DNA of 61,901 nt from a virus. Its lineage: Duplodnaviria > Caudoviricetes. Within the stretch, counting starts at the first letter, position 1. Each line of letters begins with the position of its first letter. The stretch covers positions 1 to 61,901 of the IMG/VR virus record IMGVR_UViG_3300022918_000013; one strand, given 5' to 3'. The position numbers and the translations under genes are program-made. Below the pieces are notes generated by a model. It worked only from the letters and a program-made list of their open reading frames with translations. It was not told the DNA's origin and did not search any database. Positions 16,422-61,901 of the stretch are shown here, piece after piece.

Positions 16422-17156
16422 TTATTCAGCCTCCTTAAGCTTAACCCATCCAGCCTCACGCTTTTCAACCAAAGACTCAGGCGCTTCAATGAGCGCGGCA
16501 GTTTCTTCCTCGGTTTTGCCAATCTCAGCGGCGATTGCTTTCGTGCGGAGAGGTTTTTCGAGGACGAGGTTAGCGATTTGTTCGTGGATGGTTGGGTTGG
16601 TTACTTTAGGGGCTGGCTCAGCGTTCTTTCCCAGACTTTCTTTGACTGAATCAATCACTTCGGCAGTAAATGTGTCAGGCTGTATGAGTGGTGACTCAGC
16701 TTTTGGAGTTTTTGGCGTGTGTGGCCATTCTTCTGCGGCTTTCTTGGCTTCTGCTAAGCCTTCCTCAAAAGAGGATGGAAGCTCTTTTTCTTCCGGCTCG
16801 GAGCTGATAGACGCTAGAGGATCTTGGAACTTTTCACTGAGCGATTTATCAATCAGCTTCTGAAAGTGCTCCTTTTGGTGCTCAAAAGCCTTGTCCAAGT
16901 CGTCAAAGCGCTCGCCATCGCCCGTCTCAAACACGACGTAAGGAATTGGTTTGATGAAACGGTTTCGCCCTTCGAATACCGCTACTTTATGGTGATTGAA
17001 ATCGGCAAGGCTAGCAAACTCGAATGCCGCTGAACCTGAAACTCGCCCAGGTCGTCCAGTCGTAGCCAGCCCAATCATGACGTTATTAGTTCCCTCGATA
17101 GGAACCGTGCAATCGGAACAGTTCAGAAACTCGACACCGTAAATAGCTTTGATCAT
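16422..17156 (-). CDS. Hypothetical protein with C-terminal HTH-like segment
   Basis: Acidic/Pro linker then LRTKAIAAEIGK. Confidence 0.55.
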   Translation of the reverse strand: MIKAIYGVEFLNCSDCTVPIEGTNNVMIGLATTGRPGRVSGSAAFEFASLADFNHHKVAVFEGRNRFIKPIPYVVFETGDGERFDDLDKAFEHQKEHFQKLIDKSLSEKFQDPLASISSEPEEKELPSSFEEGLAEAKKAAEEWPHTPKTPKAESPLIQPDTFTAEVIDSVKESLGKNAEPAPKVTNPTIHEQIANLVLEKPLRTKAIAAEIGKTEEETAALIEAPESLVEKREAGWVKLKEAE

Positions 17157-17194: not shown

Positions 17195-17227
17195 AAAAAG
17201 CGGGCGGCAGATTTCTCCACCGCCCGC
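17195..17227 (-). terminator. Intrinsic terminator after major capsid gene
   Basis: GCGGGCGG/CCGCCCGC stem followed by T5 on the - strand. Confidence 0.8.
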
Positions 17228-17251
17228 AGAATCCTAACAAGCCACCGTTGT

Positions 17252-37324: not shown

Positions 37325-38086
37325 TTACAGTTCGTTGATTTGATCTTGCCCGGCGTATGCGGGCCACAGGTTTTCATCCGTGCATCTCTTCCAAGTGTCC
37401 AAAACTTCGTTTAACTTCCGTCGTCCTTCTGTGATTGTCTCCATAGACTCGCGGTAAACCATGACGGTGTATGGTGGCGATGTTTCTTGAACGATCCAGA
37501 TTCCAACCGCCTCCTCGTCGAGGCAGTTCCTAACCAACTCTTTATAAACCCCAAATTGGAGATCGTAGTGCAAAGGCTCCCGAGTGGCCTTCTTGCGAAA
37601 AGCCCAAGCTCGGGAGTCTGTCGTCGTTTTGAAGTCTCCGATTACTGGAGTGCCATCTGTAGAGCGCCCGTAGAGGTCCAAGAGGCCCTTGCAAAGCACG
37701 CCATTCAAATCAGCCTGCAACGCTTTTTCTCGCTCCTTGCAGCAAGCGAGGATGCCCCTGGCAATGGGGTGCTTTGTAACAGCTTCCGCCATGCGTGGCA
37801 CCTTCATTGCTGATTCCTCTTCCAAGATAGGAAGGGTCTGCGCGGCCTTCCATGCTTTCCCTTCCTTGGTTGCAAAGCTCATTCCTTTAGGCTTCAGAGC
37901 AAAACAATCTGTTAGGTCTTTGCCCTCCAAAACGAGACTATGCGACATGGTACCGACCGCATAGCGTAGTTCGTCCACTTCCTCGGGCTCGTTCCTGGCT
38001 GTCCAGTAGTGGGCAGGAGAACGTAGGATGTGCTTGAGCGTGGAGAAACGCTCGCCTTCCAGTTTGTTGTACTCTTCGCGTGTCAT
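37325..38086 (-). CDS. PD-(D/E)xK exonuclease (RecE/DUF3799-like)
   Basis: SPAHY, GTMSH, KGLLD, DFKTT, YDLQ. Confidence 0.85.
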   Translation of the reverse strand: MTREEYNKLEGERFSTLKHILRSPAHYWTARNEPEEVDELRYAVGTMSHSLVLEGKDLTDCFALKPKGMSFATKEGKAWKAAQTLPILEEESAMKVPRMAEAVTKHPIARGILACCKEREKALQADLNGVLCKGLLDLYGRSTDGTPVIGDFKTTTDSRAWAFRKKATREPLHYDLQFGVYKELVRNCLDEEAVGIWIVQETSPPYTVMVYRESMETITEGRRKLNEVLDTWKRCTDENLWPAYAGQDQINEL

Positions 38087-38091
38087 AGAGG

Positions 38092-38886
38092 TTAACCAAT
38101 AAAACCATCCCAATCTTCCAATGCATTTGCAAGCATCAGGGTAGGCACGTCAGCAAGTGACTTGTATTGAGTTTTCCTTATTTCACAGAAACGCTCAAGA
38201 GCCCACCCTTGAGTTTTGTCCTGTTCATTTAAGAACAGAATAAAAGTTTGGAGTGGTGTCTCCTCGGGTTGCTCTTGATTTGTGGCCGCTGGCTCCTCAA
38301 GCGTTGGCGCGACATCAAACGATAGCGGCTTTTGCGGAGTCACGTCTTGAGCGTTATTCACACGGTCGGCTTCATCTTCGTCGTAGATGCCTGAGAATCC
38401 AAAAGCGATACGCACAGCTTGGCAGAATGCTTTGTGACGGAGCATTCGGTGTTCCATTTTCCATGGGTCTGTGTTGCGTTTGCATTCGTCCAGATATTCA
38501 GTAATCCTGATTGGATGCCCGCGATCTTTGCGATAGACCACGCAGGTGCAGGAAATGAGTTTCGTGCCTGCGTGTTCCCATTCAAAATCCACTCCATCCA
38601 TTTGCGGATGTGAGTTGGCTAGATTTGCCCATCCGTCCACAGAGACCACCGGGACAATGCCGCCGCCCTTAGCAGGGAAAGCATAAATCTCTTTTGTTAG
38701 GGGGTTAAGATTATAAGCGTTTGCAACGATGACGAGGGCTTGTAGTTCCTCATTATTTCGAGCGGCGGCAAACACAGTTGCCTTGAGCGTATCAAGCAGT
38801 TTAGCTGGATCTGCATTAAACCGAGCCGCCATTACGGTTAAGGGGCTGACGCGGGGGGTATTTGTTTGTGTGGTTATTTGGCTCAT
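38092..38886 (-). CDS. bet: Lambda Bet/RecT single-strand annealing protein
   Basis: LNPLTKEIYAFP, VVSVDGW, RMLRHKA, AFGFSGIYDEDE. Confidence 0.92.
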   Translation of the reverse strand: MSQITTQTNTPRVSPLTVMAARFNADPAKLLDTLKATVFAAARNNEELQALVIVANAYNLNPLTKEIYAFPAKGGGIVPVVSVDGWANLANSHPQMDGVDFEWEHAGTKLISCTCVVYRKDRGHPIRITEYLDECKRNTDPWKMEHRMLRHKAFCQAVRIAFGFSGIYDEDEADRVNNAQDVTPQKPLSFDVAPTLEEPAATNQEQPEETPLQTFILFLNEQDKTQGWALERFCEIRKTQYKSLADVPTLMLANALEDWDGFIG

Positions 38887-42949: not shown

Positions 42950-43004
42950 ATTGCTATGTGTGTTTGATGTTTTGGTTTAACGGTTTGTTTTCCGTTACGA
43001 CCAA

Positions 43005-43032
43005 ATCCTACCGCGCTTTAGAGATAGCGCAA
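43005..43032 (-). promoter_or_regulatory. Leftward promoter
   Basis: TTGCGC-16-TAGGAT. Confidence 0.45.
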
Positions 43033-43412
43033 TCGCGATTTCGTTATTGAGCATGTCAGTTCGGTATGCTCAGGCAAAGTTTATTTCATACTGACTTGGC
43101 ACGGTTCTTGAAGTGTCTAATTGGACGACGATTAGACGGATTTTAGATGGTTGACTTTGGGGGTGGAAAGGCGATTATCAACTCCTCTAGCTCTTCCTGA
43201 GGCCCTTGTGAGTGTCCGCCAAAGACTTTGCTCGCAGGGCTTTTAATGCGTTCGTAGTGTAGGATTGCACATCCCCGACAACGGGAAAGACTTGGTGAAA
43301 CTCCAGGTGGACGCTCCACTTTAAAGGTTCCTTCCCGGTGAAAAGAGGCCATGGGACTCTTCAGAAATGATAGCCGGGGAGGTCATTTAGATTCTGCATT
43401 TCACAATTCCGC

Positions 43413-43440
43413 TTGACCGGGCGGCGGGAGGGTGGATAAT
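43413..43440 (+). promoter_or_regulatory. Rightward promoter upstream of the ncRNA cluster
   Basis: TTGACC-16-GATAAT. Confidence 0.6.
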
Positions 43441-43456
43441 CGGCGCATCACCAATA

Positions 43457-43541
43457 GGTTTTGCGCTGTGGAGCGGTGCAATCCGACCCACTGCAAAACC
43501 GCACTGAGGCCCGGCGTCGCTCCACGACTACGGGCCTTTTT
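43457..43541 (+). ncRNA. C4-like two-hairpin RNA / attenuator
   Basis: GGTTTTGC/GCAAAACC stem enclosing GTGGAGCG; terminator AGGCCCG/CGGGCCT with CGCTCCAC inside it. Confidence 0.6.
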
Positions 43542-43643
43542 GTGTCGGTTTTGCTAGCTCTCAAAGTTTAAGGCTCTAAAAAAGCTCGGAGGTATGAGAG
43601 GGAATCGTTATCAGTTGAGTGATTTGAAAGTAGAGTTGAGCGG

Positions 43644-43714
43644 ACACTTGGAGAAGCATTGGGGACTTCCTGGCCTGTCCGGTTTAGCAGCGGGTTCGAA
43701 TCCCGCCTTGTGTA
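43644..43714 (+). ncRNA. Degenerate tRNA-like element 1
   Basis: Perfect T arm GCGGG-TTCGAAT-CCCGC; D arm GAAG/CTTC; weak acceptor; shortened anticodon arm; no CCA. Confidence 0.55.
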
Positions 43715-43758
43715 GTAGGGACGCCTACACCGCTCAACTCTGCTTTCGGTCATGATTT

Positions 43759-43930
43759 GAAGGAAGATTTCAGGGGCGGCGTGGAATGTAGACACGCAAA
43801 GACAAAGCAGCATGTGCAATGGTCCTCAACAAAGTTGCGAATACGGCGGATACGCCTAGCAGCACGCGAGGCGTCTGGAAGTACTGCCCCCAGCAGGGAT
43901 TGACGAACCTGCCCCCTGAAACCTTCCTTC
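43759..43930 (+). ncRNA. tRNA-mimic element 2 with long insert
   Basis: Closing stem with 17 of 18 pairs; D-like GCGTG/CACGC; T-like GCAGG/CCTGC. Confidence 0.6.
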
Positions 43931-43947
43931 TGTCAGAGTTTGAAGAT

Positions 43948-44087
43948 TGTGTTCTGCGGCGGTGCGAAGAAGTCATACTCACACGCAAGAGCCGATTGAT
44001 CGTCGGTGTGCCCTTTGGTGGATAGACGCGAGAAATCGCCAAGTAAGAAGCCAAAAAGCTGGTGTAATGCCCAGCCCGCAGAACACA
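43948..44087 (+). ncRNA. tRNA-mimic element 3 with long insert
   Basis: 12-bp closing stem TGTGTTCTGCGG/CCGCAGAACACA; T-like GCTGG/CCAGC. Confidence 0.55.
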
Positions 44088-44391
44088 GTTTCCGCTCCAG
44101 TAGAAACGGTACGGAAGGGCCTGACTGAGATTTAAGCCCGCAGCGCACTGGAGCAATCCAGAACCTCGCATCCTTACTCCAGCCGATTCCACCCACGGAA
44201 TCAATTAGATGTGCGCCGTCTGGTTGGATGCGATCCCTTCAGTGGGATGTTGGACCCCTCAGACTCGCTTCCTACGCGAAAGAGATTTCACTAGCACGGA
44301 CTCCTTCAAAGGGAGAAACCGTGCCGTGTTCCTACACCCGCAAGCCTATCGAAAGTAGATCACCCAAACCAACCCAGAGAGAACCAAGATT

Positions 44392-45069
44392 ATGAGCAAC
44401 ACAGTCACATACGAAGGAGAAGCGGGACTTTTTAGCGAACGCCTGAGAGCAAGAGCTGAAGGTTTCATCGTTGGGCAACAGTACCAAGTTCAACAGGCAA
44501 TGAGGGGCACATTTCACACCTCTTATGTCATCGTTGGCAAGCCTGGAACATGGAACTCAGTTCTGTTTAAGGCGAGTGAATCACTGCCGATGATCGACAC
44601 CTATTATCATAGTGCCACCTCAGAGCCACAGCCCAACGTGGTTCAATCGGATTTCTCTGCCACATCGTATGATCCAGGCCCTTCAATAGACTCCTCACCG
44701 GGAGACTTTTCGAGCGGTGGCGGTGATTTTGGAGGAGCCGGGATGGAGATAAAGGAGGGGCTGAATTTTTTAAACCCAGAGCAGTGCAAGTTCGTTCATT
44801 TCGACTGGGTTGTCACAAATCCACCCTGGTCAAAGGTCAGGGAGTTCCTTCAGCGTTCAATGGAGGTAGCGGATAACATCGTCTTCCTTATGACGGTCAA
44901 CCATTGCTGGACAAAAGCCCGTGTGCGCGATGTAAAGCAGGCAGGATTCGGCCTCAAAGAGATACTGCTATGCGATATGCCAAAGGAGTTTCCACAGTCC
45001 GGCTTTCAACTCGGTGCAATGCATTGGCAGCGGGGATGGACCGGAGACATTAAATTGAGCAGTCTGTAA
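44392..45069 (+). CDS. Chimeric ORF: unknown N-terminus fused to a partial N6-adenine DNA methyltransferase
   Basis: DWVVTNPPWS catalytic motif; GGGDFGGAG at the junction. Confidence 0.65.
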   Translation: MSNTVTYEGEAGLFSERLRARAEGFIVGQQYQVQQAMRGTFHTSYVIVGKPGTWNSVLFKASESLPMIDTYYHSATSEPQPNVVQSDFSATSYDPGPSIDSSPGDFSSGGGDFGGAGMEIKEGLNFLNPEQCKFVHFDWVVTNPPWSKVREFLQRSMEVADNIVFLMTVNHCWTKARVRDVKQAGFGLKEILLCDMPKEFPQSGFQLGAMHWQRGWTGDIKLSSL

Positions 45070-48560: not shown

Positions 48561-50143
48561 GTGACAAACTCCCAGAACTAGAGGCGATGGTTCCAGATGT
48601 GGGGCCGGACGAACTCAAGAAGGGGATGCTCGATCCTTTGTGGCGCATTCGGAATCTTTACTGGATTCGAACTGAAGACGGGCAAGTTAGGCGCTTTGTC
48701 CCCAACGAGGCACAGGAGCGCATCCTTGATGCCATCTATGTCAAAGGGCATACGAAGCTGATCATTCCCAAAGCACGGCAACGTGGCATGAGTACTCTTA
48801 TTGCCATCATCAGCCTGGACCTCGTTCTATTTTACTCGACGGTTCAAGCCTCGTTGGTGGATTTCAACGGCGCTAACGCCAAGAAGAAGCTGGATGAAAA
48901 GGTGGTGTTGGCGTTCAATCACCTACCGCAATCCGTCCGGCGGAACTTCGATTACAACCTCAACCGGCAAGAAGGGACGTTCACGATTTGGCGCAGGGAC
49001 AACCCTGAGTCTAAAAGCTGGTTCCTTGCTGGAGACAAGCCTCGCGGTGGCACGAATCAGCTTCTATGGATCTCAGAATGGGCGGAAATAGCGGCGAAGT
49101 TCCCAAGTGTAAGCCTTGAAATTAAGCTAGGGGCGCTCAAGTCAGCGGGCACGCCTGGAGCGCTAATCATCATTGAAACGACATGGCACGGCGGCAAGAC
49201 GGGCGATGTGTGGCCGTTGGTCGAGATGGCGCTAACGACTCAAGAAGAGGACAAAACGCTGTCCGATTGGCGAGTGATGTTCGTGCCTTGGTGGGAGTCA
49301 GCAGTCTTCCGTAATCGCGGCAACCCAGCGCAAATCACTGATGAGACGCGAAAGTATTTCGCAGAAAAGTCAGCCAAGCTAGGAGTGCAATTTGATGAGC
49401 CACAAATGTTATGGTGGCAGATTGAAAAGAGGATCAGCGGAATCTACATGTCAGGGCAGTATCCGACTGACATTGAGGAGTGTTTTGCCTCGCCAGTCGA
49501 GGGCGCTATTTACGCGGATCTTATCGCGGAAGCTAGGACGCAAGGGCGCATATCTGATTTCATCATAGACTACTCAATCCCTATTGATACCCTTTGGGAC
49601 TTAGGAAACCTCATGAACACGGTTGTCTGGTACTGTCAAAGCATCGCAGGCCGCAGACGGTTTGTGGATGTTGATATTGGGCTAAAACTGGACCTAAGCG
49701 ACCGCAAGAAGCACATGGACGGGAAAGGCTACGTGTTTGGTAAACACATCCTTCCTCACGATGGAAATGCTCAATGGACGACCGGCGCAACGTTTCAAAC
49801 TGAAATGATGAAAGCCGGATTTGAAAACGTGGTAGTGCTCAAGCCGATCAAGAGCGTGAGCCTGCGTATTCAAAAGATGCGTGAGATTTTGCCCAGTTGC
49901 AGTTTCCATAAGACAAAATGCAAGGATGGTATTAAAGGCCTTGAGCACTACAGGTACCGAGCACACCCAAAAGAAGAGGGGCACTTCCTTGATGAGCCAG
50001 TTCATGACAGCTCCAGCCACATTGCCGACAGCGCGGGCTACCTTGGGGAAGGGTTGCTTTCGAACATAATCTCGACAACAGGCGACCACTACACAACAAA
50101 TGCGTTCTTCGATACGGACGCGATTAACAATCTAGCAGCATGA
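48557..50143 (+). CDS. terL: Terminase large subunit
   Basis: PNEAQ, KARQRGMST, WISE, ETT; nuclease motifs WDLG, LPHDG, HDSSSHIAD. Confidence 0.93.
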   Translation: MSDKLPELEAMVPDVGPDELKKGMLDPLWRIRNLYWIRTEDGQVRRFVPNEAQERILDAIYVKGHTKLIIPKARQRGMSTLIAIISLDLVLFYSTVQASLVDFNGANAKKKLDEKVVLAFNHLPQSVRRNFDYNLNRQEGTFTIWRRDNPESKSWFLAGDKPRGGTNQLLWISEWAEIAAKFPSVSLEIKLGALKSAGTPGALIIIETTWHGGKTGDVWPLVEMALTTQEEDKTLSDWRVMFVPWWESAVFRNRGNPAQITDETRKYFAEKSAKLGVQFDEPQMLWWQIEKRISGIYMSGQYPTDIEECFASPVEGAIYADLIAEARTQGRISDFIIDYSIPIDTLWDLGNLMNTVVWYCQSIAGRRRFVDVDIGLKLDLSDRKKHMDGKGYVFGKHILPHDGNAQWTTGATFQTEMMKAGFENVVVLKPIKSVSLRIQKMREILPSCSFHKTKCKDGIKGLEHYRYRAHPKEEGHFLDEPVHDSSSHIADSAGYLGEGLLSNIISTTGDHYTTNAFFDTDAINNLAA

Positions 50144-53133: not shown

Positions 53134-56100
53134 ATGCCCAATAACTACCTCCCTATCCCCGAAGAGGAGCGCGACGCCTATCAGGCTAGCAGGCTCGAAC
53201 GCTCAAGCAATGGGAAGGGCGCATTAGATGCCTTCGGGTCAGCGGGTGATGACGTGGCGACTATCTCCGCTGGTAAACCTATCCGCTATGTGCCGCAACC
53301 GACCGGACAGCTTCAAGAGATCCTACCTCCATCAGGCGCGCCTAACTTCGTTCAACGCAGTGGTTCAAAGGTTATTGAAGATCCGCTAACCGGCGAGCCG
53401 TACATTCCTGACTCCGCCTCTCCGTATGGTTATACTAGTGCCTACGATCAAGCCAAGCAGAGCACGGTTAAGGGCGACATTGTGGCAAACGTCCCTGGCT
53501 ATGGCCGTCGAGTGATTGGCCGTGATCCAGTGGCACAAGAGAAGGAGGAAACGAAAGCTAAAGCGGCAGCACTCGCTGACCAGTACCGCGCTGAAGGTCG
53601 CCCTTTCTACGTCTCGAAGGTGGATGGACTGCCAAAACCTAAACATCGACCTGGCGAATGGGAAGCAATCCAAGCGGCCAAGGAAGAGAAGAAAGCTAGT
53701 GGCGAAGAGGCTAAACGTGCGGCTCTGCTTACTGCTGATCCTTCAATCAAGAAGCGCCCCGACAAGGAGATTAAAGCCCTCAAGGAAGAAGCCGAAGCTG
53801 GCGACGCTATGCTTGCGGCTAAGGCTGACCCCGCAAATCCTGCGGTAGCGGCTGCCTTGCAAAAGGCTGAACAAGCCAAGGCTATTCTTGCTCAAGAGGA
53901 GAACGCCAAGGAAATCAAACAGCAGCTCGCTACTCAAGCGTGGGAAGCTCGGTTGCGCCGTGATGCGCCGGACCTATGGAAGGAGCGCCAGAAAGCTAAG
54001 CTGGCAGACATGCCACGTGAGGAGTTGCAAAAGACGATTCCGACCTTGCAGGCGCAGATCCAAGAGAAGGTAGCAGCTACCACAGAGCGCGCCGCTCAAC
54101 TACGCGACAAGCAGGCCGTATTTGAGTCTGAGTACAAAGCGGTTGAGGAGCAAGAAGCCAAGCAGCGCACTATTGGTATCAATGCGGCGCAGCTTGCTAA
54201 GTTTGCCGCTGAGAAAGAGCGGATCAACTTTTCTGCTAATCAATGGCTAGGCGAAAACCAAGACCTACTGGAAGAAATCAAGGTAGGCCAGGCTGATGTT
54301 GAAAACGAAACTGAACTGGCTAATGAGGCGATCACTACTCATAACGCCAAGGTAAAAGCTGAACGCACGGACACTCTGGAGAAGCTGAAGGCTGTTCCAC
54401 AAACCGCGCCGATTGCTGATAAACTGGCAAAGCTTGACTCTGAATACGAGCAACGGATTGCTCAATGGGAGGCGCAATATCCAGACAATCAGACACCCGC
54501 CGCTCAGGCTGGCTACAAGGCTATTGACGAAGAGTTCAAAGCTAAGAATCAAGAGGCGGCAACTGAAGCCGAACAAGCACTTCAAAAGGTGCCAGCCAAG
54601 AAGGTAGAGCAACCCGACAAGCCTTTCTTCGACCTTGGCAATACCGTTGACGCTATTGGTGATGTTATCAAAGGTATCACAGTTACAGTTCCAGCGGCAT
54701 ATCGCCAGCTCCGCGAGGGGCTTGTTCGCCCTGACCAATACTCACCAGAGGCTAAAGCAGCCTTTGCGGCGGCGGATGCCTACTCGCAAGAGATGCAGGC
54801 TAAGACGGCGGCGTTACAAGCCCAAGGTAAAAGCGACTCAGTAAGTGAGTCCTTCCGTGAAGCTGGCCCGAGTTTGGGTTTCACAGGCGTATCTCTAGGC
54901 GCTTCCATGCTTGGCGGCGCTGGTACTGGCGTTGTTGCTGGCTCGGTCGTCCCTGGTCTAGGCAATACAACAGGCGCTATTGTTGGAGCTGTGGGTGGCG
55001 CTGCCGCATCAGCCCCAACCGCCTACCGAATGGCAGGCGCTGGCTTCTTAGATGGAGCGTTCAAGAAGATTGAGGCGGAGAAGGGCAGGCCACTTACTGA
55101 ACAAGAGATGGCAGAAGCTTATGACGTACTGTTGCCCATCGCACAGAATACCGCCCTTTGGGAAGCTGGCCCGGAAGCTGTAGCTAACGCTGTCACGCTA
55201 GGCGCAGGCAAGTTCGTGTTTGGCTTTGGCAAGAAAGCCGCGAAAGAGATTGCTGAGTCTGCATTCAAGACGGCTGTTAAGAAAGCGGGCGCGATTGTTG
55301 GCGCTCAAGCCTCCGAGCTTGGAACCGAGACGATTACTCAGGTGGAGCAAGCCGCCGACCAACTCAAGGCGGATGCAATCGCTAAAGGCGCTCCAACTAA
55401 GGGCATCCGGCCTGATTGGAGTCCTTCAGGAGTCGTTAAATCCTTCAAAGAAGTCGCCCCTCAAACTCTCGCTCTAGGCGCTTTAACCGGCGGCGCAGGT
55501 GGAGCGGCCAAACTCGCAACCAATCTACTCCCAAGTGGCAAGAATGCAGAGACACAGACCCAGGATGAAGCCGCCCCAGAGTCGGCAACGGCTGAATCAG
55601 GCCCATACTCGCAGCTTCCAGAGATCCGTGCTGCCGCCGATGAAGCGGTGAAGATGTGGCAACCAGATGTTACGACACTGCCAACACAGTTCCAGCCAAC
55701 ACTAGACAAGGATGGCGTAGAAGTGCCAGCCGAATACAACCCAAAGAGCGCGGCTGAGACTCTTGTACGCGTAGCCCGTGGTGAACCACTGGTTGAAATG
55801 GACTCTGACGCCCAGCTAAAGAACGTGGGTTTAGAGAATCGCGGCGGCAAGATCGTTCCCCAAAAGGGTTTTGGAGCGCCATTCGTGACAATGGAAGGGC
55901 CTAAAGGTGATCAGCCCGTCATCACTGAGGCTGGTATGCAGTTCCTGAAGTCAGACGAAGCTCTTTCGCCTGCCATTGCCGCTATTGGCCTGAGCCCGCA
56001 AGATCGTCGGAAACAAATCAACGCAATACCTAAAGAAAATGAAGATTCTAAGTCGCTTATTCAGGCCACAGACAAAAGTGCAATATCGCCAAGTGCGCCC

Positions 56101-59100
56101 AATTCCACTAGCAACCGAACAGGATCTGAATTGGTTGGCGGACTCGATAGAGAGAACGGAAGCACGATGGAAACTAACCCAAATAAAATTGGGAATGATT
56201 CGGCGCAAACGTCAAAAAGTCAGGACTCCTCAAATAATAAGCAGCTTGCACGACCGCCACTAGGCCAAGCGCCTCCTGCGCAACGCAAAGCCATCGGCAA
56301 AGGTGCCGCTGGTCAGTCGTCTTATGCTGAGTTCGCCACGCCAGACGATGCGGAGGCCTTCACGTATGCGGCTGACTTGGCGCGCTACAATAACAACTCA
56401 AAGAAGGTCAGCGATAACGACCGTGCCCAGGCCGCACAATCAGCCAGGGATAAGCTCGCCCGCATTGCTGAACGCACAGGGCTGAGCGCCGAAGAACTGC
56501 GCCCCATCCTGAAGAGGTATAGCGAGGCGATTCGCCAGACAGCCAAGCGCAAAAAGCAGGGCGAGTCATTCCAAGCACCGACCTTTGAAGAGTTCACTGA
56601 TACCTCTCTGGATATTGCCAAGGAGCCTATTGATCTTTTCCACGGCGGCCTGCCTGAAGACGCGACCCTTGACCAAATCGACCTAGATCGTGCAGGCTCG
56701 CAGCAAAACAAGCGTAACCGTTCTTATGGCGGGTTCTACCTAACTGATGGCAGTAGCCGTGAATGGTCAGACAAGTACGCTAAACAGCGTGGCGCTGCGG
56801 TTCATCGCGTGCGCCTGAAAGCCGGTTCGCGCATTCGTTCCACGCAAGAGAACATTGACCGTTTAAGCGAGAGGCAACGGGCAGAACTAGCGAAGAAGTA
56901 TGACGCTGTTCGGGGCGTTGACACGCTTGGCCGCGCTCAATGGGTATTGCTCAATAAGAACGCTGTAGAGTCATTCGAGGTGGTCAGCGAAAAAGCGGCT
57001 GAGCCCGCAAAGGCCACACAGCCTAAAGCTCCGCATCAAATCTTCCGCGCCGCTGTTGAGGCATCAACGGAACTGACGGCAACTCAGCGCGAGGCAGGAT
57101 TGCGCACGGCAAAAGCAATCGCTCGTTGGGCTCCGATCTTTGCCAAGGCTGGCTTTAGTGTCAAAGCCGGGCAGGTTCGAGGCTCGGGCATTTCCTACAG
57201 CCCGTCAGCACGGTTAATCACCATTGATCCTGTCAATTTCTCGATTGACCTGGCAAAATCCAAGTCACCAAAAGCGCAAGAAGCTCGTATCCAAGCTGTC
57301 TTTCGTGAGGAGCTTTTGCACGGCCTGATTCGTGACAACCTCGGAATCGCTAAGCCTATCGAATGGTGGCGGTCCTTGTCTCCTGAAGCTCAAGCAATCT
57401 CCATCAAGCTCTATGATGGGCGTTTTGACACTGCGAGCATTCCAGATCCAGACAGTGCGGAGGAGTCAAACCGCGCCGATGAGTTTGTGCGGCAACTCTT
57501 CCAAGAGTCGTTTTGGTCCGAAGTGACCGAAGTGGCGGGCAAGAACTTGAACGTGATGGCAGAACTTCGCCGGATATTCGAGGAGCTTCTTGTTGCTTTG
57601 AAGGCTATTCGCCAGACTGCGCCCAAGGCTGTAGCGGCTGAGATTAACGCTGCTGAAAGGCTGATTCGCGCTCGGTTAACTGAGCTGGGAGCGCTGGAGA
57701 AAGAGGCGGAAGTTATTGCTTCCACGCCTATCAATGAGGCTTCTCGTATCCGTGAAGATTTGCCAGAAGCGGCTCCAATTATTGCAGAAATTGACGCTCT
57801 AACAAAGCTTTCGGAAGAACGTCATTCAGAGCTTGGCCCTGATCTAAAAGGTCTTGTCCATCCATCGGAGCTTTTAACGCCAGAGGAAAAGCAACGTGTC
57901 TATGACTTGAAAATGTCATTACGCCCTAAAAGTCGTGAAGAAGCGAAAGCGGACATAATGAAGAAGCGGGCGGCTCGTTTACAGCAGCCCAATCAAGCTC
58001 CCGAAAACACCTCCACATCATCTTCCGGCGTCCTCGGCACCATCACAGACTCTGGTAGCGTAACGACCGTCAAAGTCCGCGACCTTGCGAAGGCAAATCA
58101 TGGCGACTTCCGCGAGATTGCCAGCAACGAGGACTTCACGAAGGATTTCCGCTATAACGACACGACCAAGGAAGTCTTTTGGTGGAATCTGGACAAGATC
58201 ACGCCCGAAGATAAGCAGAAGGTAAGTGACTGGCTAGAAGCTCAAGGCAAGACGGTTGCTCGTCATCGTGGCGTGAAGTCTTCAGATGAGACTTACCGGC
58301 GTGCGCATGGGGCTTTGAGTGCTCCTGTGAATAGTCCTGACAAGCCTCTAGCTGTTGTCCATAACCTGAGTATTGCAAATCTCCGCCATGCCTTAAAGGT
58401 GGGTGGATTGCCAGTGCCATCATTAGCCGTTATCCGCGCCGATTTGAGCGGTTTTGATAGCTTTGGAGAGGTGACGTTGATTGCCAATCCTGATCTAATC
58501 GACCCGCAAAAGAACAAGGCATCTAAGGTGTTTAATGCGGATGTTTATTCGCCTCGTTATCCAACGGTTAAAATCTTGTTCAAGCCTTCGGACTTTAATA
58601 AAATAGCCAGTGCATTCAAGCCTTGGAGTGAGGAATTAAAAACCATCCCTAAACTTGGTTACTCCTGGAGTGTTGAAAGCGCTGTTGATTCAATCAAAGA
58701 TGACGGTTATGAGCGGTCTGGAAATAATCCGCTGGTCGGATACTCATACTTGAGAGACAAAGGACTAATTGATCCTCCAACCGCAGAAGATGGCAACTCA
58801 AGTTTCAATGAGGCAGTGTACAGGAAGGCACGTGACTACCGGGATGAAATTACTTCATGGGTTGAAGAGAAGATTCTTGCAGCAGGCGTAGAACCTGTGG
58901 AGAAGATTTTCGATGGATTCACAAACTCAGGAAATAAGAGGTATCTGCCGCATGATCTAGATACCGTTGTCAAGATCCTAAAGCGAGGGCTGAAGGATGG
59001 GGAGGGATTCAATTATGGAGTGCCCTCTATTCGTGCAGCCAATGCTAAACCATTCCGCACACTCAAAGCTATCCAAGAGTCACGCAATCATATTGTGACT

Positions 59101-61901
59101 AAGGATGAAATGGAAGAGTTGAAAAAGGAAGTTAACGAAGAGTTCGTTAAGCTTGCTGAACATGCTTTATCTATTAGATCCTCAAAACCTCGTTTTGGTG
59201 GCCTTGATGCTATTAGCGATGACATGAAGGCGCTGGCAAAAGGCGGCTCAACCAATATCACGTATTTACGGGAGATGTATCCAGATAGTGACATCTTCAA
59301 CGAAATGCGGACATTTTTGGATAAGCTCAGGCATCTGCCAACCGAGTACTTTGAAAGTAAGATTCAGAGAGCAGTGTATTTAAATGAGTTTGGGGCAGCG
59401 GTTGTTCCTGACTCCACACCAGAAGACTTACAAGCCACACTAAAGAAGCGTGGTCTTAGCGTTGTGACATACCCTGAAAAGGATGGAGTCGCACGCAAAC
59501 AGGCTGTATTACAGGCAGCACAAGAGAGAGGTGCTTTATTTGCCCCCGGAAACTTCGCCACACCCGAGAACGATTCGCCTGAAGAAATCGAGCGTGCCAA
59601 TGCAATCAACGAGACGGCACAAGCTGACATTGATACGCTGACTGAGGCTGTGGATGGGTTTTTGGCAGCTAGTGAGAACGCAGGCGATGAAGCCCAAGAC
59701 TACGCCAACGCCAATCTCCCTCGCCCTCCAATCATGGAGGAGATGGTTGCACGCGCAGAGACGAAACCAGGAACTTACATTACCCCTGATGCTCTTGGCG
59801 GCACATCCACGCCTCAACGTATCCGCACGTCATTAATTCAATGGCTCGCCAACCAGAACTCCGAAGTTCGCCCGCGTGAAGTTCTGGCTCAAGAGGCTGA
59901 AACCTTCCTTGCGGCCCCAGGTGGTGAGCAAGCCTTAATGCTTGAAATGTTGGATGCGGCGAATGAGCAGCGCCCAATTACAGACGCTATGCAGGTTGCT
60001 TGGCAGGTGTTGCAACCAAAGCTCTACAAGCGAGCCGTTGCCACAGGTAGCGCCCGGCTGATGCGTGAGCACGACGCCTTGGCTTATGCTTACAAAGAGA
60101 TCGGCACTGAGACAGCCCGCTCTCTCGCTGCCCGTCGAGATCCGAATCAGACTCCCACCGAACGATTCCGCGAGGCTATCCGCAACATTGCCCGGACGCC
60201 AACTAACCGCGCCTTGATTCGCCAGATTGATGAAACACAAACGCCATCGGCTAAAGCTCGCAAGGTAAAGGCTCTTGAAAGGAAACTGGCTGATGAATTA
60301 ACCAAGGCTCAGACAAACTCTGAAGAGATCCGCAGTTTGCAAAAAGAACTGGCCGACGAGCGCCGCAAGCCTGACAAAGCCGACGTGATTGCACGCATGG
60401 CCGTTGATGCGCAGAAGCGCACGGATGCAGTTTTAGCCAAGCTTGGGCTCAGTGAATATGATGTAATGCTCGATAACGAGGATCGTTATGCCGCTATGAA
60501 GTCTCAGCCTGTAATGCAGGCGATGGAAGGTCTATCGGTGCAAGATAAAGCCATCGTCACGCAGTTGATGGAGGGTAACTCGCACCGCGCCATCATGCAG
60601 AAGACAGGCGCGAGCTTGCAACACATAGGTGCTCTTCATGAGCAGTTCCGCAACAAACTTGAAGCCCAACTCAAGACATTCCTTGGCGCTCAAGGTAACA
60701 CGCTCATGACGATGATCGAGCAAGGACAGGCAGCTATCCGCGATGGACGCGCAGCCGGTCGTAACATCAAAGGTGAACTGAGTGATCCCGCTGTCCAAAA
60801 AGCAATGACTCAGGCGAACCGTGATGCCATCATGCGTTCGCTGGCTTGGCTACTGCCAACGGCTCGCTCTGTGAATAGCGGCAATCTCAAGCCTGTGACG
60901 GTGGTGATTAGTAAAGTCGGCCCCACTGGACAAAAGGTGCAGAAAGTTACTCTTCACGTCCCATACGACCCCGAGAACGCTAGTCAAGCCTACCGCATCG
61001 CCCGTGAGATGCAGGCGGCGCAGTCAACCAAATACGATAAGGCCTATGAATACTGGATTAACGGCATTCTAAGCGGCCCACAGACTCAGTTCGTCAATAC
61101 GGCTGGCAACTTGGTTTCTACAGCTTGGCACTACGGCTATCAGCGGCCCGTTGAAGGGCTGATGAACATGGTTATGCGCGATCCTGGCGGCGTGCAGATG
61201 GGCGAACAGGGGCGACTTATCAGCGCCCTCCGTCCTGCGCTGGCAGAAGCCTATACAAACGCCATTCAGGCCTTCTCGACTGAGGCTGACACCCTCCGCT
61301 CAATCTACCTCGATCAACCAATTGAGATTAACGCCAAGGATGGCACAATTGACAAGATTGGCGGCGCTCCACGGGCTGCGAACAAAGGCGCGATTGGCCG
61401 CACGATTCGCCTTCCTGGCCGTCTCTTGCGTGCCACGGATGCATTCTTCAAGACTGCAATCGCCCGAATTGAAGTTGGCGCTCTGGCATATCGTCAAGGT
61501 CTAGCTGATGGATTGAATGGCGCGGCGCTTGAGCAATTCGTTCAATCGGAAATCAACACCTATGGCTCTCAATCTTGGCATAAGGCGCTGGCAACCGCTG
61601 AAATCCTGACGTTCCAAGAGGATTCATGGCTTGCAAAAGCTGGTGAATCTATCGTTCGTGGCCGTGGCGCTGAACAAATTCAAAAGAAAGCCTCGAAACT
61701 GCGTCAGCAAGGCAAGATTGATGAGGCGGATGTAATGGAAAATACCGCCAAAGCGCTGGATATTTTTGTGGCTAAACCTTTGGCTTTCCTCTTTCCGTTT
61801 GTCCGCACTCCAGCCAATATTATGCTGACGGGTATTCGTAAGTCTCCCATTGGCTCTCTTGGCGTCCTATTGAATATCATGAATGGTCTGTACCAACAGA
61901 C
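53134..61901 (+). CDS. Giant polyvalent ejection protein (wraps to 1238; ~3,287 aa)
   Basis: Frame from ATG 53134 read open at every point checked and absent from the ORF track, as expected if it has no stop; glycine-zipper region, ART-like LFHG..GFYLT, EELLH motif, HNLS domain. Confidence 0.9.
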   Translation, partial: MPNNYLPIPEEERDAYQASRLERSSNGKGALDAFGSAGDDVATISAGKPIRYVPQPTGQLQEILPPSGAPNFVQRSGSKVIEDPLTGEPYIPDSASPYGYTSAYDQAKQSTVKGDIVANVPGYGRRVIGRDPVAQEKEETKAKAAALADQYRAEGRPFYVSKVDGLPKPKHRPGEWEAIQAAKEEKKASGEEAKRAALLTADPSIKKRPDKEIKALKEEAEAGDAMLAAKADPANPAVAAALQKAEQAKAILAQEENAKEIKQQLATQAWEARLRRDAPDLWKERQKAKLADMPREELQKTIPTLQAQIQEKVAATTERAAQLRDKQAVFESEYKAVEEQEAKQRTIGINAAQLAKFAAEKERINFSANQWLGENQDLLEEIKVGQADVENETELANEAITTHNAKVKAERTDTLEKLKAVPQTAPIADKLAKLDSEYEQRIAQWEAQYPDNQTPAAQAGYKAIDEEFKAKNQEAATEAEQALQKVPAKKVEQPDKPFFDLGNTVDAIGDVIKGITVTVPAAYRQLREGLVRPDQYSPEAKAAFAAADAYSQEMQAKTAALQAQGKSDSVSESFREAGPSLGFTGVSLGASMLGGAGTGVVAGSVVPGLGNTTGAIVGAVGGAAASAPTAYRMAGAGFLDGAFKKIEAEKGRPLTEQEMAEAYDVLLPIAQNTALWEAGPEAVANAVTLGAGKFVFGFGKKAAKEIAESAFKTAVKKAGAIVGAQASELGTETITQVEQAADQLKADAIAKGAPTKGIRPDWSPSGVVKSFKEVAPQTLALGALTGGAGGAAKLATNLLPSGKNAETQTQDEAAPESATAESGPYSQLPEIRAAADEAVKMWQPDVTTLPTQFQPTLDKDGVEVPAEYNPKSAAETLVRVARGEPLVEMDSDAQLKNVGLENRGGKIVPQKGFGAPFVTMEGPKGDQPVITEAGMQFLKSDEALSPAIAAIGLSPQDRRKQINAIPKENEDSKSLIQATDKSAISPSAPNSTSNRTGSELVGGLDRENGSTMETNPNKIGNDSAQTSKSQDSSNNKQLARPPLGQAPPAQRKAIGKGAAGQSSYAEFATPDDAEAFTYAADLARYNNNSKKVSDNDRAQAAQSARDKLARIAERTGLSAEELRPILKRYSEAIRQTAKRKKQGESFQAPTFEEFTDTSLDIAKEPIDLFHGGLPEDATLDQIDLDRAGSQQNKRNRSYGGFYLTDGSSREWSDKYAKQRGAAVHRVRLKAGSRIRSTQENIDRLSERQRAELAKKYDAVRGVDTLGRAQWVLLNKNAVESFEVVSEKAAEPAKATQPKAPHQIFRAAVEASTELTATQREAGLRTAKAIARWAPIFAKAGFSVKAGQVRGSGISYSPSARLITIDPVNFSIDLAKSKSPKAQEARIQAVFREELLHGLIRDNLGIAKPIEWWRSLSPEAQAISIKLYDGRFDTASIPDPDSAEESNRADEFVRQLFQESFWSEVTEVAGKNLNVMAELRRIFEELLVALKAIRQTAPKAVAAEINAAERLIRARLTELGALEKEAEVIASTPINEASRIREDLPEAAPIIAEIDALTKLSEERHSELGPDLKGLVHPSELLTPEEKQRVYDLKMSLRPKSREEAKADIMKKRAARLQQPNQAPENTSTSSSGVLGTITDSGSVTTVKVRDLAKANHGDFREIASNEDFTKDFRYNDTTKEVFWWNLDKITPEDKQKVSDWLEAQGKTVARHRGVKSSDETYRRAHGALSAPVNSPDKPLAVVHNLSIANLRHALKVGGLPVPSLAVIRADLSGFDSFGEVTLIANPDLIDPQKNKASKVFNADVYSPRYPTVKILFKPSDFNKIASAFKPWSEELKTIPKLGYSWSVESAVDSIKDDGYERSGNNPLVGYSYLRDKGLIDPPTAEDGNSSFNEAVYRKARDYRDEITSWVEEKILAAGVEPVEKIFDGFTNSGNKRYLPHDLDTVVKILKRGLKDGEGFNYGVPSIRAANAKPFRTLKAIQESRNHIVTKDEMEELKKEVNEEFVKLAEHALSIRSSKPRFGGLDAISDDMKALAKGGSTNITYLREMYPDSDIFNEMRTFLDKLRHLPTEYFESKIQRAVYLNEFGAAVVPDSTPEDLQATLKKRGLSVVTYPEKDGVARKQAVLQAAQERGALFAPGNFATPENDSPEEIERANAINETAQADIDTLTEAVDGFLAASENAGDEAQDYANANLPRPPIMEEMVARAETKPGTYITPDALGGTSTPQRIRTSLIQWLANQNSEVRPREVLAQEAETFLAAPGGEQALMLEMLDAANEQRPITDAMQVAWQVLQPKLYKRAVATGSARLMREHDALAYAYKEIGTETARSLAARRDPNQTPTERFREAIRNIARTPTNRALIRQIDETQTPSAKARKVKALERKLADELTKAQTNSEEIRSLQKELADERRKPDKADVIARMAVDAQKRTDAVLAKLGLSEYDVMLDNEDRYAAMKSQPVMQAMEGLSVQDKAIVTQLMEGNSHRAIMQKTGASLQHIGALHEQFRNKLEAQLKTFLGAQGNTLMTMIEQGQAAIRDGRAAGRNIKGELSDPAVQKAMTQANRDAIMRSLAWLLPTARSVNSGNLKPVTVVISKVGPTGQKVQKVTLHVPYDPENASQAYRIAREMQAAQSTKYDKAYEYWINGILSGPQTQFVNTAGNLVSTAWHYGYQRPVEGLMNMVMRDPGGVQMGEQGRLISALRPALAEAYTNAIQAFSTEADTLRSIYLDQPIEINAKDGTIDKIGGAPRAANKGAIGRTIRLPGRLLRATDAFFKTAIARIEVGALAYRQGLADGLNGAALEQFVQSEINTYGSQSWHKALATAEILTFQEDSWLAKAGESIVRGRGAEQIQKKASKLRQQGKIDEADVMENTAKALDIFVAKPLAFLFPFVRTPANIMLTGIRKSPIGSLGVLLNIMNGLYQQ
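61758..61901. repeat. Terminal direct repeat, copy 2
   Basis: Matches 1..142. Confidence 0.97.

Follow-up and report, generated by a model that had tools for sequence, protein, structure and literature searches.

What is encoded in the gap of about 1 kb that separates the last start of the leftward genes (43352) from the first ATG of the rightward genes (44392) in the virus record IMGVR_UViG_3300022918_000013? The entire 61.9-kb record, derived from a novel tailed phage, was analyzed and is referred to here as the window (abbreviated W). An earlier note, made from the letters of this DNA, had proposed that the gap holds about 0.9 kb without a convincing open reading frame (ORF) and a promoter-driven array of RNAs shaped like transfer RNA (tRNA), with variable inserts. 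The gap contains three tandem elements at 43626-44093, designated E1, E2, and E3. On balance, these are probably three tandem genes on the + strand for tRNA-derived, helix-extended structured RNAs with exchangeable cores, as judged from comparative sequence analysis. Long closing helices, their conservation, their covariation, a strand bias in their pairing, a tRNA-like geometry, and the swapping of cores in two unrelated phage-host systems were all observed. The lack of coding content was borne out: no credible gene was found in 43353-44391, where the ORFs (144 and 87 aa on the - strand, 68 aa on the + strand) have no Pfam match and run across cores that differ in every relative.

All three elements lie on the + strand and are closed by an 18-bp helix. 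In E1 (43626-43747), the helix is formed by 43626-43643 with 43730-43747. A canonical T-arm, GCGGGTTCGAATCCCGC, occupies 43690-43706, where it is internal and does not abut the closing helix; the hairpin that abuts the 3' strand is GTGTAG/CTACAC (43710-43730). The T-arm had been recognized in the earlier note, which missed the closing helix. In E2 (43759-43930), positions 43759-43776 pair with 43913-43930 with one A.C mismatch, followed by a CG linker, a hairpin GCGTG/CACGC (43779-43797), a variable center, and a T-like hairpin GCAGG/CCTGC (43893-43912) directly abutting the 3' strand. The geometry previously described for E2 (a 17/18-bp stem, the CG linker, and GCAGG/CCTGC joined to the 3' strand without a gap) is therefore present. 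In E3 (43942-44093), the helix of 43942-43959 with 44076-44093 includes wobbles; it encloses a CG linker, a weak 4-bp hairpin, ACACGCAA at 43981-43988, and a T-like hairpin GCTGG/CCAGC (44058-44075) that abuts the 3' strand. These internal features of E3 had been correctly noted, but the stem of 12 bp assigned to it was too short, its outer 6 bp having been missed. The elements are separated by two 11-nt linkers: GGTCATGATTT (43748-43758), located inside a 57-nt block that is 98% identical in a related phage (G2), and TGTCAGAGTTT (43931-43941), conserved in the contigs L015 and L018. The inner 7 bp of the helices are similar among the three paralogues (UGAGCGG, UCAGGGG, and UCUGCGG).

Besides the window, arrays are carried by one IMG/VR phage (G2, locus L002) and three metagenome contigs (L014, L015, and L018), and the family analyzed here consists of 13 elements in these five arrays. 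Arms and linkers are 92–100% identical to those of the window in all four relatives, and the cores (40–186 nt) cannot be aligned. The E1 arms, for instance, are 96–100% identical in L002, L014, L015, and L018 and enclose a different core in each of the five arrays; altogether there are five distinct E1 cores, five E2 cores, and three E3 cores. Both edge hairpins of E2 are retained in four of the five arrays, which have nothing else in common there, and the center is unalignable. In a second sample, contigs likewise include the arms but leave out the cores, and this sample holds 44077-44392 with 2 differences. The window and G2 are otherwise distant: tblastx matches cover 9,653 of 61,901 bases (16%) at a mean identity of 52.7%, and blastn yields only 8 matches, with identities of 69–84% in coding sequence and 96–98% in three arm blocks. 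The arms are the best-conserved DNA between these two phages, which suggests sequence-specific recognition of the arms or frequent recombination at them. The context of the arrays varies as well. In L014, the array has no leader; the genes before it share its orientation, and those after it converge on it. The leader and array of L015 are separated by a small ORF, and G1, a complete relative, has no array. The differing context in L014 and the absence from G1 indicate that the array is portable and dispensable. No further arrays emerged from a distant blastn of 43300-44400 against GenBank phages (no match), a TerL-based locus search (none), a search with the 708-aa neighbor of the G2 array as query (matched only itself), or a search for the E2-E3 linker pattern in viral contigs (0 matches). 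Five other candidates, L012 and L013 (Paenibacillus), L017 and L019 (transposase-like), and L028, were discarded as chance matches inside coding sequence.

The pairing of the arms follows a fixed plan. In 13 of 13 elements, the closing helix is split into 11 outer bp (leader/trailer) and 7 inner bp (acceptor-like), with U at positions -1 and +1 of the 5'-strand junction, A-A opposite, and A at the discriminator position. The helices comprise 250 cells, among them 215 Watson-Crick pairs, 13 G.U (in 8 columns), and 2 A.C; the excess of G.U over A.C fits RNA of the + strand, or single-stranded DNA of the + strand. Compensatory changes occur in E1, where GG/CC is replaced by AC/GT in L015, and in E3 of L018 (ATAGTG/CACTAT vs ATTGTG/CACAGT). 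The window genome contains four helices of at least 18 bp enclosing 50–230 nt, compared with a mean of 1.7 in shuffled genomes, and three of the four (18–20 bp, in tandem) lie in the array. Relative to shuffles, the region has a fold z-score of -5.05 on the + strand. Cores folded alone have z-scores of -1.1 to +1.0 in 12 of 13 elements, the value for L015 E1 being -2.95. As the cores are not unusually stable, the fold signal resides in the closing helices and the edge hairpins.

The likeness to tRNA lies in the geometry. A 7-bp acceptor-like stem is found in all 13 elements, and a 5–6-bp hairpin directly abuts its 3' strand in 10 of them; a strict script counted 8, but dropped two canonical T-arms through a boundary artefact, and these were restored. 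In shuffled cores, such an abutting hairpin arises at a frequency of 5–19% each. The T-loop TTCRANY in a 5-bp stem (consensus GGTTCGANTCC) occurs in three of the 13 elements (W E1, L015 E1, and L015 E3), a near-canonical TGCRATT is found in L014 E2 and L018 E2, and the consensus is absent from the remaining elements. In a scan of about 404 kb, the T-arm motif (5 bp plus TTCRANY) was found only in arrays, and it is absent elsewhere on both strands of W, G1, and G2. The canonical T-arm of L015 E3 is at the position equivalent to the T-like hairpin of window E3, and L015 E1 folds into a cloverleaf in which the D-loop is expanded, the variable loop has 5 nt, and the T-arm sits directly against the 7-bp acceptor-like stem. 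No anticodon arm (5 bp, 7-nt loop) is present in any window element. After the discriminator-like A, the 3' strands continue with CUC, ACC/AUC, and CAC, and no CCA is encoded. The invariant 11+7 split, the abutting hairpins, and the array-restricted motif uphold the proposal of a family built on the top half of tRNA. As a separate observation, a canonical T-arm, GGATGTTCAATCCGTCC, lies at 3559-3575 of L002, in the tail behind E2 of G2, with no 18-bp closing helix around it.

A parallel was found in cultured Pseudomonas phages. The best match of the window's TerL is from Pseudomonas phage Itty13, whose genome has the same size and layout as that of the window phage. At the syntenic junction, Itty13 has an unannotated gap with three elements closed by 17–20-bp helices, all of which start with CTGCATCGGA and end with ATGCAG; one of them contains a canonical D-arm and a canonical T-arm. 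Within this gap there is no ARAGORN call and no Rfam match (E<=1). The temperate phages Shamal and Haboob carry the core with the D-arm and T-arm at 87% identity inside a different closing helix, and the closing helices and T-stems of Shamal and Haboob covary with those of Itty13 element B. The Shamal and Haboob sequences match the Rfam tRNA model end to end with 42.0 and 43.1 bits (cut-off 29), and 36–37 nt replace 13 central positions of the anticodon arm of the model. This agrees with the earlier proposal that the variable part takes the place of the anticodon arm. The 19-nt arms of Shamal recur in 29 P. aeruginosa phage records. When nine temperate P. aeruginosa phages were compared, eight had identical arms, and the two changes seen in the ninth convert mismatches to pairs; the same nine phages carry seven unrelated kinds of core (39–65% identity in global alignment). 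A second, unrelated system thus shows the combination of constant arms, a swapped core, and tRNA-like edges, and the claim of a variable payload is sustained by the five arrays and the nine Pseudomonas phages alike. In Ralstonia phage NK-7 (TerL 31%), no helix of at least 17 bp around a 50–230-nt core was found at the junctions examined.

Three minor features of the Pseudomonas loci were also recorded. In Itty13 (locus L030), a 22-nt repeat, ACAGCCGGAGAGACGGCCCGAT, stands ahead of two of the three elements (16907-16929 and 17218-17240), and the annotated coding sequence QRE00608.1, which overlaps the first element, may be a mis-call. In Pseudomonas phage PAE2, L033 2502-2558 matches positions 9-63 of the tRNA model, without the acceptor stem, at 29.9 bits. 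This partial match, which lies about 850 nt downstream from the element between the arms, may mark another tRNA-derived element with different arms.

Several results weigh against reading the window array as tRNA-derived RNA genes. ARAGORN and Rfam call none of its elements a tRNA, even at E<=10, and none has a full match to an Rfam family. The arrays of the relatives likewise have no ARAGORN or Rfam call, the L015 array having no tRNA match at E<=10. Formal membership in the tRNA family therefore fails. The sole Rfam match in the window at E<=10 links the 17-nt T-arm of E1 to the T-arm of transfer-messenger RNA (tmRNA), with 15.8 bits against a gathering score of 47 for RF00023. A 5' 'D-like' hairpin is present at chance frequency (40–68%), and the D-like arm claimed in the earlier note is not supported. 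L018 E1 and L018 E3 each consist of a simple long hairpin and have no stacked arm, and by the strict script L002 E1 is without a stacked 5-bp hairpin. The fold z-score of the - strand (-4.84) is equally low. Since 12 of the 13 cores are no more stable than shuffles, a structured payload is weak for most elements. The only recognizable promoter meets a terminator 85 nt upstream of E1, with no promoter-like site between this terminator and E1, and the terminator-like hairpin behind the L014 array was seen by eye only and not called by the scan. The family is small (five arrays from leaf-litter metagenomes), and its tie to the Pseudomonas elements is one of architecture and synteny, not of sequence. 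Finally, the arms of distant phages are nearly identical, more so than RNA pairing needs, and this also fits recent transfer or a role at the DNA level.

The last point bears on the first of four other explanations, in which the locus is a DNA-level recombination module whose arms are exchange boundaries for non-essential segments, with the inverted repeats and any RNA fold being secondary. In its favor, the arms are the most conserved nucleotides between diverged genomes, beyond the needs of the helix, and the whole neighborhood is mosaic: upstream of the array, too, the window and L015 have only short patches of 29–230 nt in common. The phage encodes RecT and an exonuclease, the cores are not unusually stable, and the fold z-scores are equal on both strands. 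However, the arm sequences of E1, E2, and E3 differ from each other and still form the same 11+7 helix with the same U/U-A/A junction and 11-nt linker. Exchange boundaries would also not account for 13 G.U against 2 A.C cells together with compensatory changes, for T-arm motifs and abutting hairpins located inside the cores, or for a Pseudomonas counterpart that scores as tRNA. No match to the tyrosine integrase family PF00589 was found in the window phage, serine recombinases not having been searched for. A DNA-level recombination module is considered unlikely.

The promoter and its leader RNA bear on a second explanation. The promoter claimed earlier, TTGACC-16-GATAAT, is present on the + strand at 43413-43440, agrees with the sigma-70-like consensus at 10 of 12 positions, and lies in a block (43402-43447) that is 89% conserved in L015. 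It is followed on the same strand by a leader RNA of about 95 nt (43447-43541), consisting of a hairpin, GGTTTTGC/GCAAAACC (43457-43464 paired with 43493-43500), and an intrinsic terminator at 43508-43541 (stem 43508-43513 with 43531-43536, T-run 43537-43541). The leader aligns with those of L015, L018, and L002, with compensatory change in 6 of 19 consensus pairs, and the leader terminators point rightward. A terminator scan called the L002 leader terminator and not that of the window, because the loop of the latter exceeds the length rule of the scan. As the transcript from this promoter reaches its own terminator (43508-43541) ahead of the array, the description of the array as promoter-driven is supported only in part. 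The leader RNA may be a small RNA gene or an attenuator of the rightward operon. In the second explanation, the elements would form a cis-acting leader of that operon, their helices being processing or stability sites, such as the RNase III sites of phage T7 early RNA, or part of an antitermination device combined with the leader terminator. Such a role would fit the order in the window, where promoter, terminated leader, and array immediately precede the first rightward gene and no terminator lies between array and gene, as well as a LuxR/GerE-type regulator (Pfam) as the second rightward gene and the covarying, conserved leader. It fits poorly with L014, where the array is leaderless, behind co-oriented genes, and facing convergent ones, with L015, where a small ORF separates leader and array, and with the array-free genome of G1, and it provides no role for T-arm content or swapped cores. 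We therefore regard a cis-acting leader as improbable. A shared promoter was also considered and rejected: the genome has 10 copies of GAKTTGRAR where 5.9 would be expected, a count that was reached in 10 of 100 shuffles.

Alternatively, the locus could be a decaying or atypical tRNA gene island with pseudo-tRNAs or odd tRNAs and cores without function. This would be compatible with the T-arm consensus in 3 of 13 elements, the 7/5 geometry, and a genuine tRNA-Arg(TCT) about 350 nt upstream of the L015 promoter; in addition, phage tRNA regions have been described as hot spots of non-homology between relatives (PMC2330249). Decay, however, would not preserve 18-bp helices at 92–100% identity with an 11-bp extension in every copy. 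There is also no recognizable anticodon arm in any window element, the same arms enclose five different cores, and the tRNA-like core of the Pseudomonas phages is 87% conserved between unrelated phages, which together make a tRNA island quite improbable. The tRNA-Arg(TCT) itself (L015 1166-1241, - strand of the locus, 47.5 bits) is on the strand of the array, and the equivalent position in the window holds a 69-aa ORF. Least probable by far are RNAs similar to Y RNAs that partner a host Ro60 (Rsr) protein, in which the long terminal helix would bind Ro60 and the tRNA-like domain would recruit an effector. A long 5'/3' helix plus a tRNA-like domain is present, and tandem Y RNAs cut from one precursor and a phage-encoded YrlA are on record (PMC4201824). 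However, the phage has no TROVE gene (PF05731 gave no match in the 61.9-kb record while positive controls matched), Rfam gives no match, and none of the 13 elements contains the GNCGAAN0-1G motif. In YrlA, moreover, the modules are ordered V-T-acceptor hairpin-D and the long helix replaces the anticodon stem (PMC4201824), whereas the window helix prolongs the acceptor.

Two narrower ideas were discarded. Matches of the cores to W, G1, G2, and the loci, sought as antisense targets, are only 13–16 nt long, which is chance level, and the energies of duplexes between cores and the downstream tail are not below those of shuffles (z -1.9 to +0.9), although the method is poor for long sequences. A resemblance to integron attC sites was noticed by eye in the E1 arms (GTTGAGC/GCTCAAC), but the box order is wrong, the motif is absent from E2 and E3, and no integrase was found.

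Comparison with known systems places the window elements near tRNA and tmRNA, but in neither class. As in tRNA (RF00005), their 7-bp acceptor-like stem is stacked coaxially on a T-like arm of 5 bp, and Shamal and Haboob pass the tRNA model; unlike tRNA, the window elements are not called, have no anticodon arm and no CCA, extend the acceptor by 11 paired bases, and hold unrelated cores in the same arms. Like tmRNA (RF00023), they combine a tRNA acceptor and T-arm with a long insert replacing the anticodon arm. In contrast to tmRNA, they have no ARAGORN tmRNA call, no tag reading frame, and no pseudoknot series, and they measure 90–220 nt rather than about 360. A tmRNA is defined by a full model match, a tag frame, the alanine identity pair G3.U70, and CCA; the single match here covers model positions 347-363 only. 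Phage T4 produces stable RNAs ('species 1 and 2') of 120–140 nt with tRNA-like termini, which are co-transcribed with tRNAs and have no known function; they are not known to have long leader/trailer helices or swapped cores. In the engineered 'tRNA scaffold', an arbitrary RNA replaces the anticodon arm, and the tRNA body confers processing and nuclease resistance. That scaffold is a laboratory design, whereas the natural elements add a leader/trailer helix of 11–15 bp. In rRNA operon stalks and the RNase III sites of T7 early RNA, the flanks pair into a helix of about 20 bp, and cutting by RNase III frees the RNA. These stalks enclose rRNA or mRNA, while the window helices enclose tRNA-like cores; by length comparison, the window helix, which has 18 bp and reaches about 23 bp if the stacked hairpin is counted, fits an RNase III stalk. 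The C4 antisense RNA of phages P1 and P7 is a small regulatory RNA that acts as a specificity determinant in phage immunity and, to our knowledge, has no 18-bp closing helix. There is no match to the Rfam C4 family in the window, and no complementary targets were found nearby. According to PMC4919922, C4 is released from a longer precursor by RNase P. Bacterial Y RNAs such as YrlA are also similar, being tRNA mimics on a long helix formed by the ends, present in phages, and derived from multi-copy precursors, with one member cut by RNase P (PMC4201824); they differ in their permuted module order, their link to Ro60, and a conserved helix motif that is missing here. No description of such elements was found in full-text literature searches, but the list of 10,006 candidate viral RNAs in PMC10690425 may hold related motifs.

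In the preferred reading, of tRNA-derived RNAs with exchangeable cores, each RNA would be derived from, or a copy of, the top half of a tRNA, that is, a 7-bp acceptor-like stem with a stacked T-arm-like hairpin. The 11 bp of leader/trailer pairing would extend the acceptor-like stem outward into the 18-bp closing helix. The closing helix and the edge hairpins would serve as a constant scaffold, and the core, at the place of the D-arm, anticodon arm, and variable loop, would be the exchangeable part. The array could be transcribed if RNA polymerase passes the leader terminator, or else from an upstream operon, which is the arrangement in L014. Each unit would then be excised by host nucleases that recognize long helices or a tRNA shape: RNase III may act on the coaxial stack of about 23 bp, and RNase P possibly 12 bp from the T-like loop, at the junction of the invariant U(-1) and U(+1). 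A search of the window phage for RNase III, a CCA-adding enzyme, and RtcB found none; with no RNase III of the phage, the host enzyme would be needed. The scaffold may protect the RNA ends, while the core would provide specificity under diversifying selection in phage-host or phage-phage conflict. Homologous recombination at the conserved arms would swap cores among phages and could be mediated by the RecT/exonuclease pair.

Taken one step further, the array might be a natural 'RNA cassette holder' in which a tRNA-top-half scaffold with a leader/trailer helix, its cores swapped by recombination at the arms, presents interchangeable, fast-evolving specificity RNAs; this proposal is tentative and rather doubtful. 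If true, the specificity RNAs would be counter-defense decoys or RNAs of immunity or competition, shared as a population-wide pool, and the system would be an RNA analogue of gene cassettes that is present independently in Pseudomonas phages and in phages of a leaf-litter host. Ultra-conserved arms around swapped cores are typical of conflict loci, the cargo here being RNA. A single architecture is present in two unrelated phage-host systems and has remained unannotated in at least 10 GenBank phage genomes, and a class of tRNA-derived genes would escape standard tRNA finders; tRNA mimicry by phage RNAs is known only from scattered cases. Because Itty13, Shamal, Haboob, phi1, and others are cultured, cleavage of the RNAs, their partners, and the effect of the cores on infection can be tested directly.

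The remaining features concern the surroundings of the array and the rest of the genome. From the end of E3 to the first rightward gene, a tail of shorter hairpins extends over 44094-44391 (+ strand) with no terminator seen. One hairpin of this tail (44126-44148) may be a fourth small conserved element: compared with L018 (reverse strand, about 1990-2020), its loop GACTGAGA is kept and its stem is changed (GGGC/GCCC vs GGCGTC/GACGCC). On the leftward side, an intergenic patch at 42984-43115 is 91% conserved in L015, is surrounded by replaced genes, and contains a 17-nt palindrome (43024-43047); it is likely an operator or regulatory site. The window's TerL is at most 32% identical to that of any GenBank phage, and the genes of the window phage include a primase-helicase and, at 37325-38886, RecT and a PDDEXK exonuclease. 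No match to the reverse transcriptase family PF00078, a criterion for retrons, was found at E<=1 in the window phage. Within the TerL gene, at 49818-49951, GATTTGAAA is followed by an inverted repeat of 12–16 bp (49832-49843 with 49940-49951, 96 nt between); the site is faintly like the start of E1, probably by chance. At 53134-61899, an open frame extends for more than 2,900 aa and exits the end of the record, and another frame enters at its start (3-1238); if the record is circularly permuted, the two would form one protein of about 3,300 aa.

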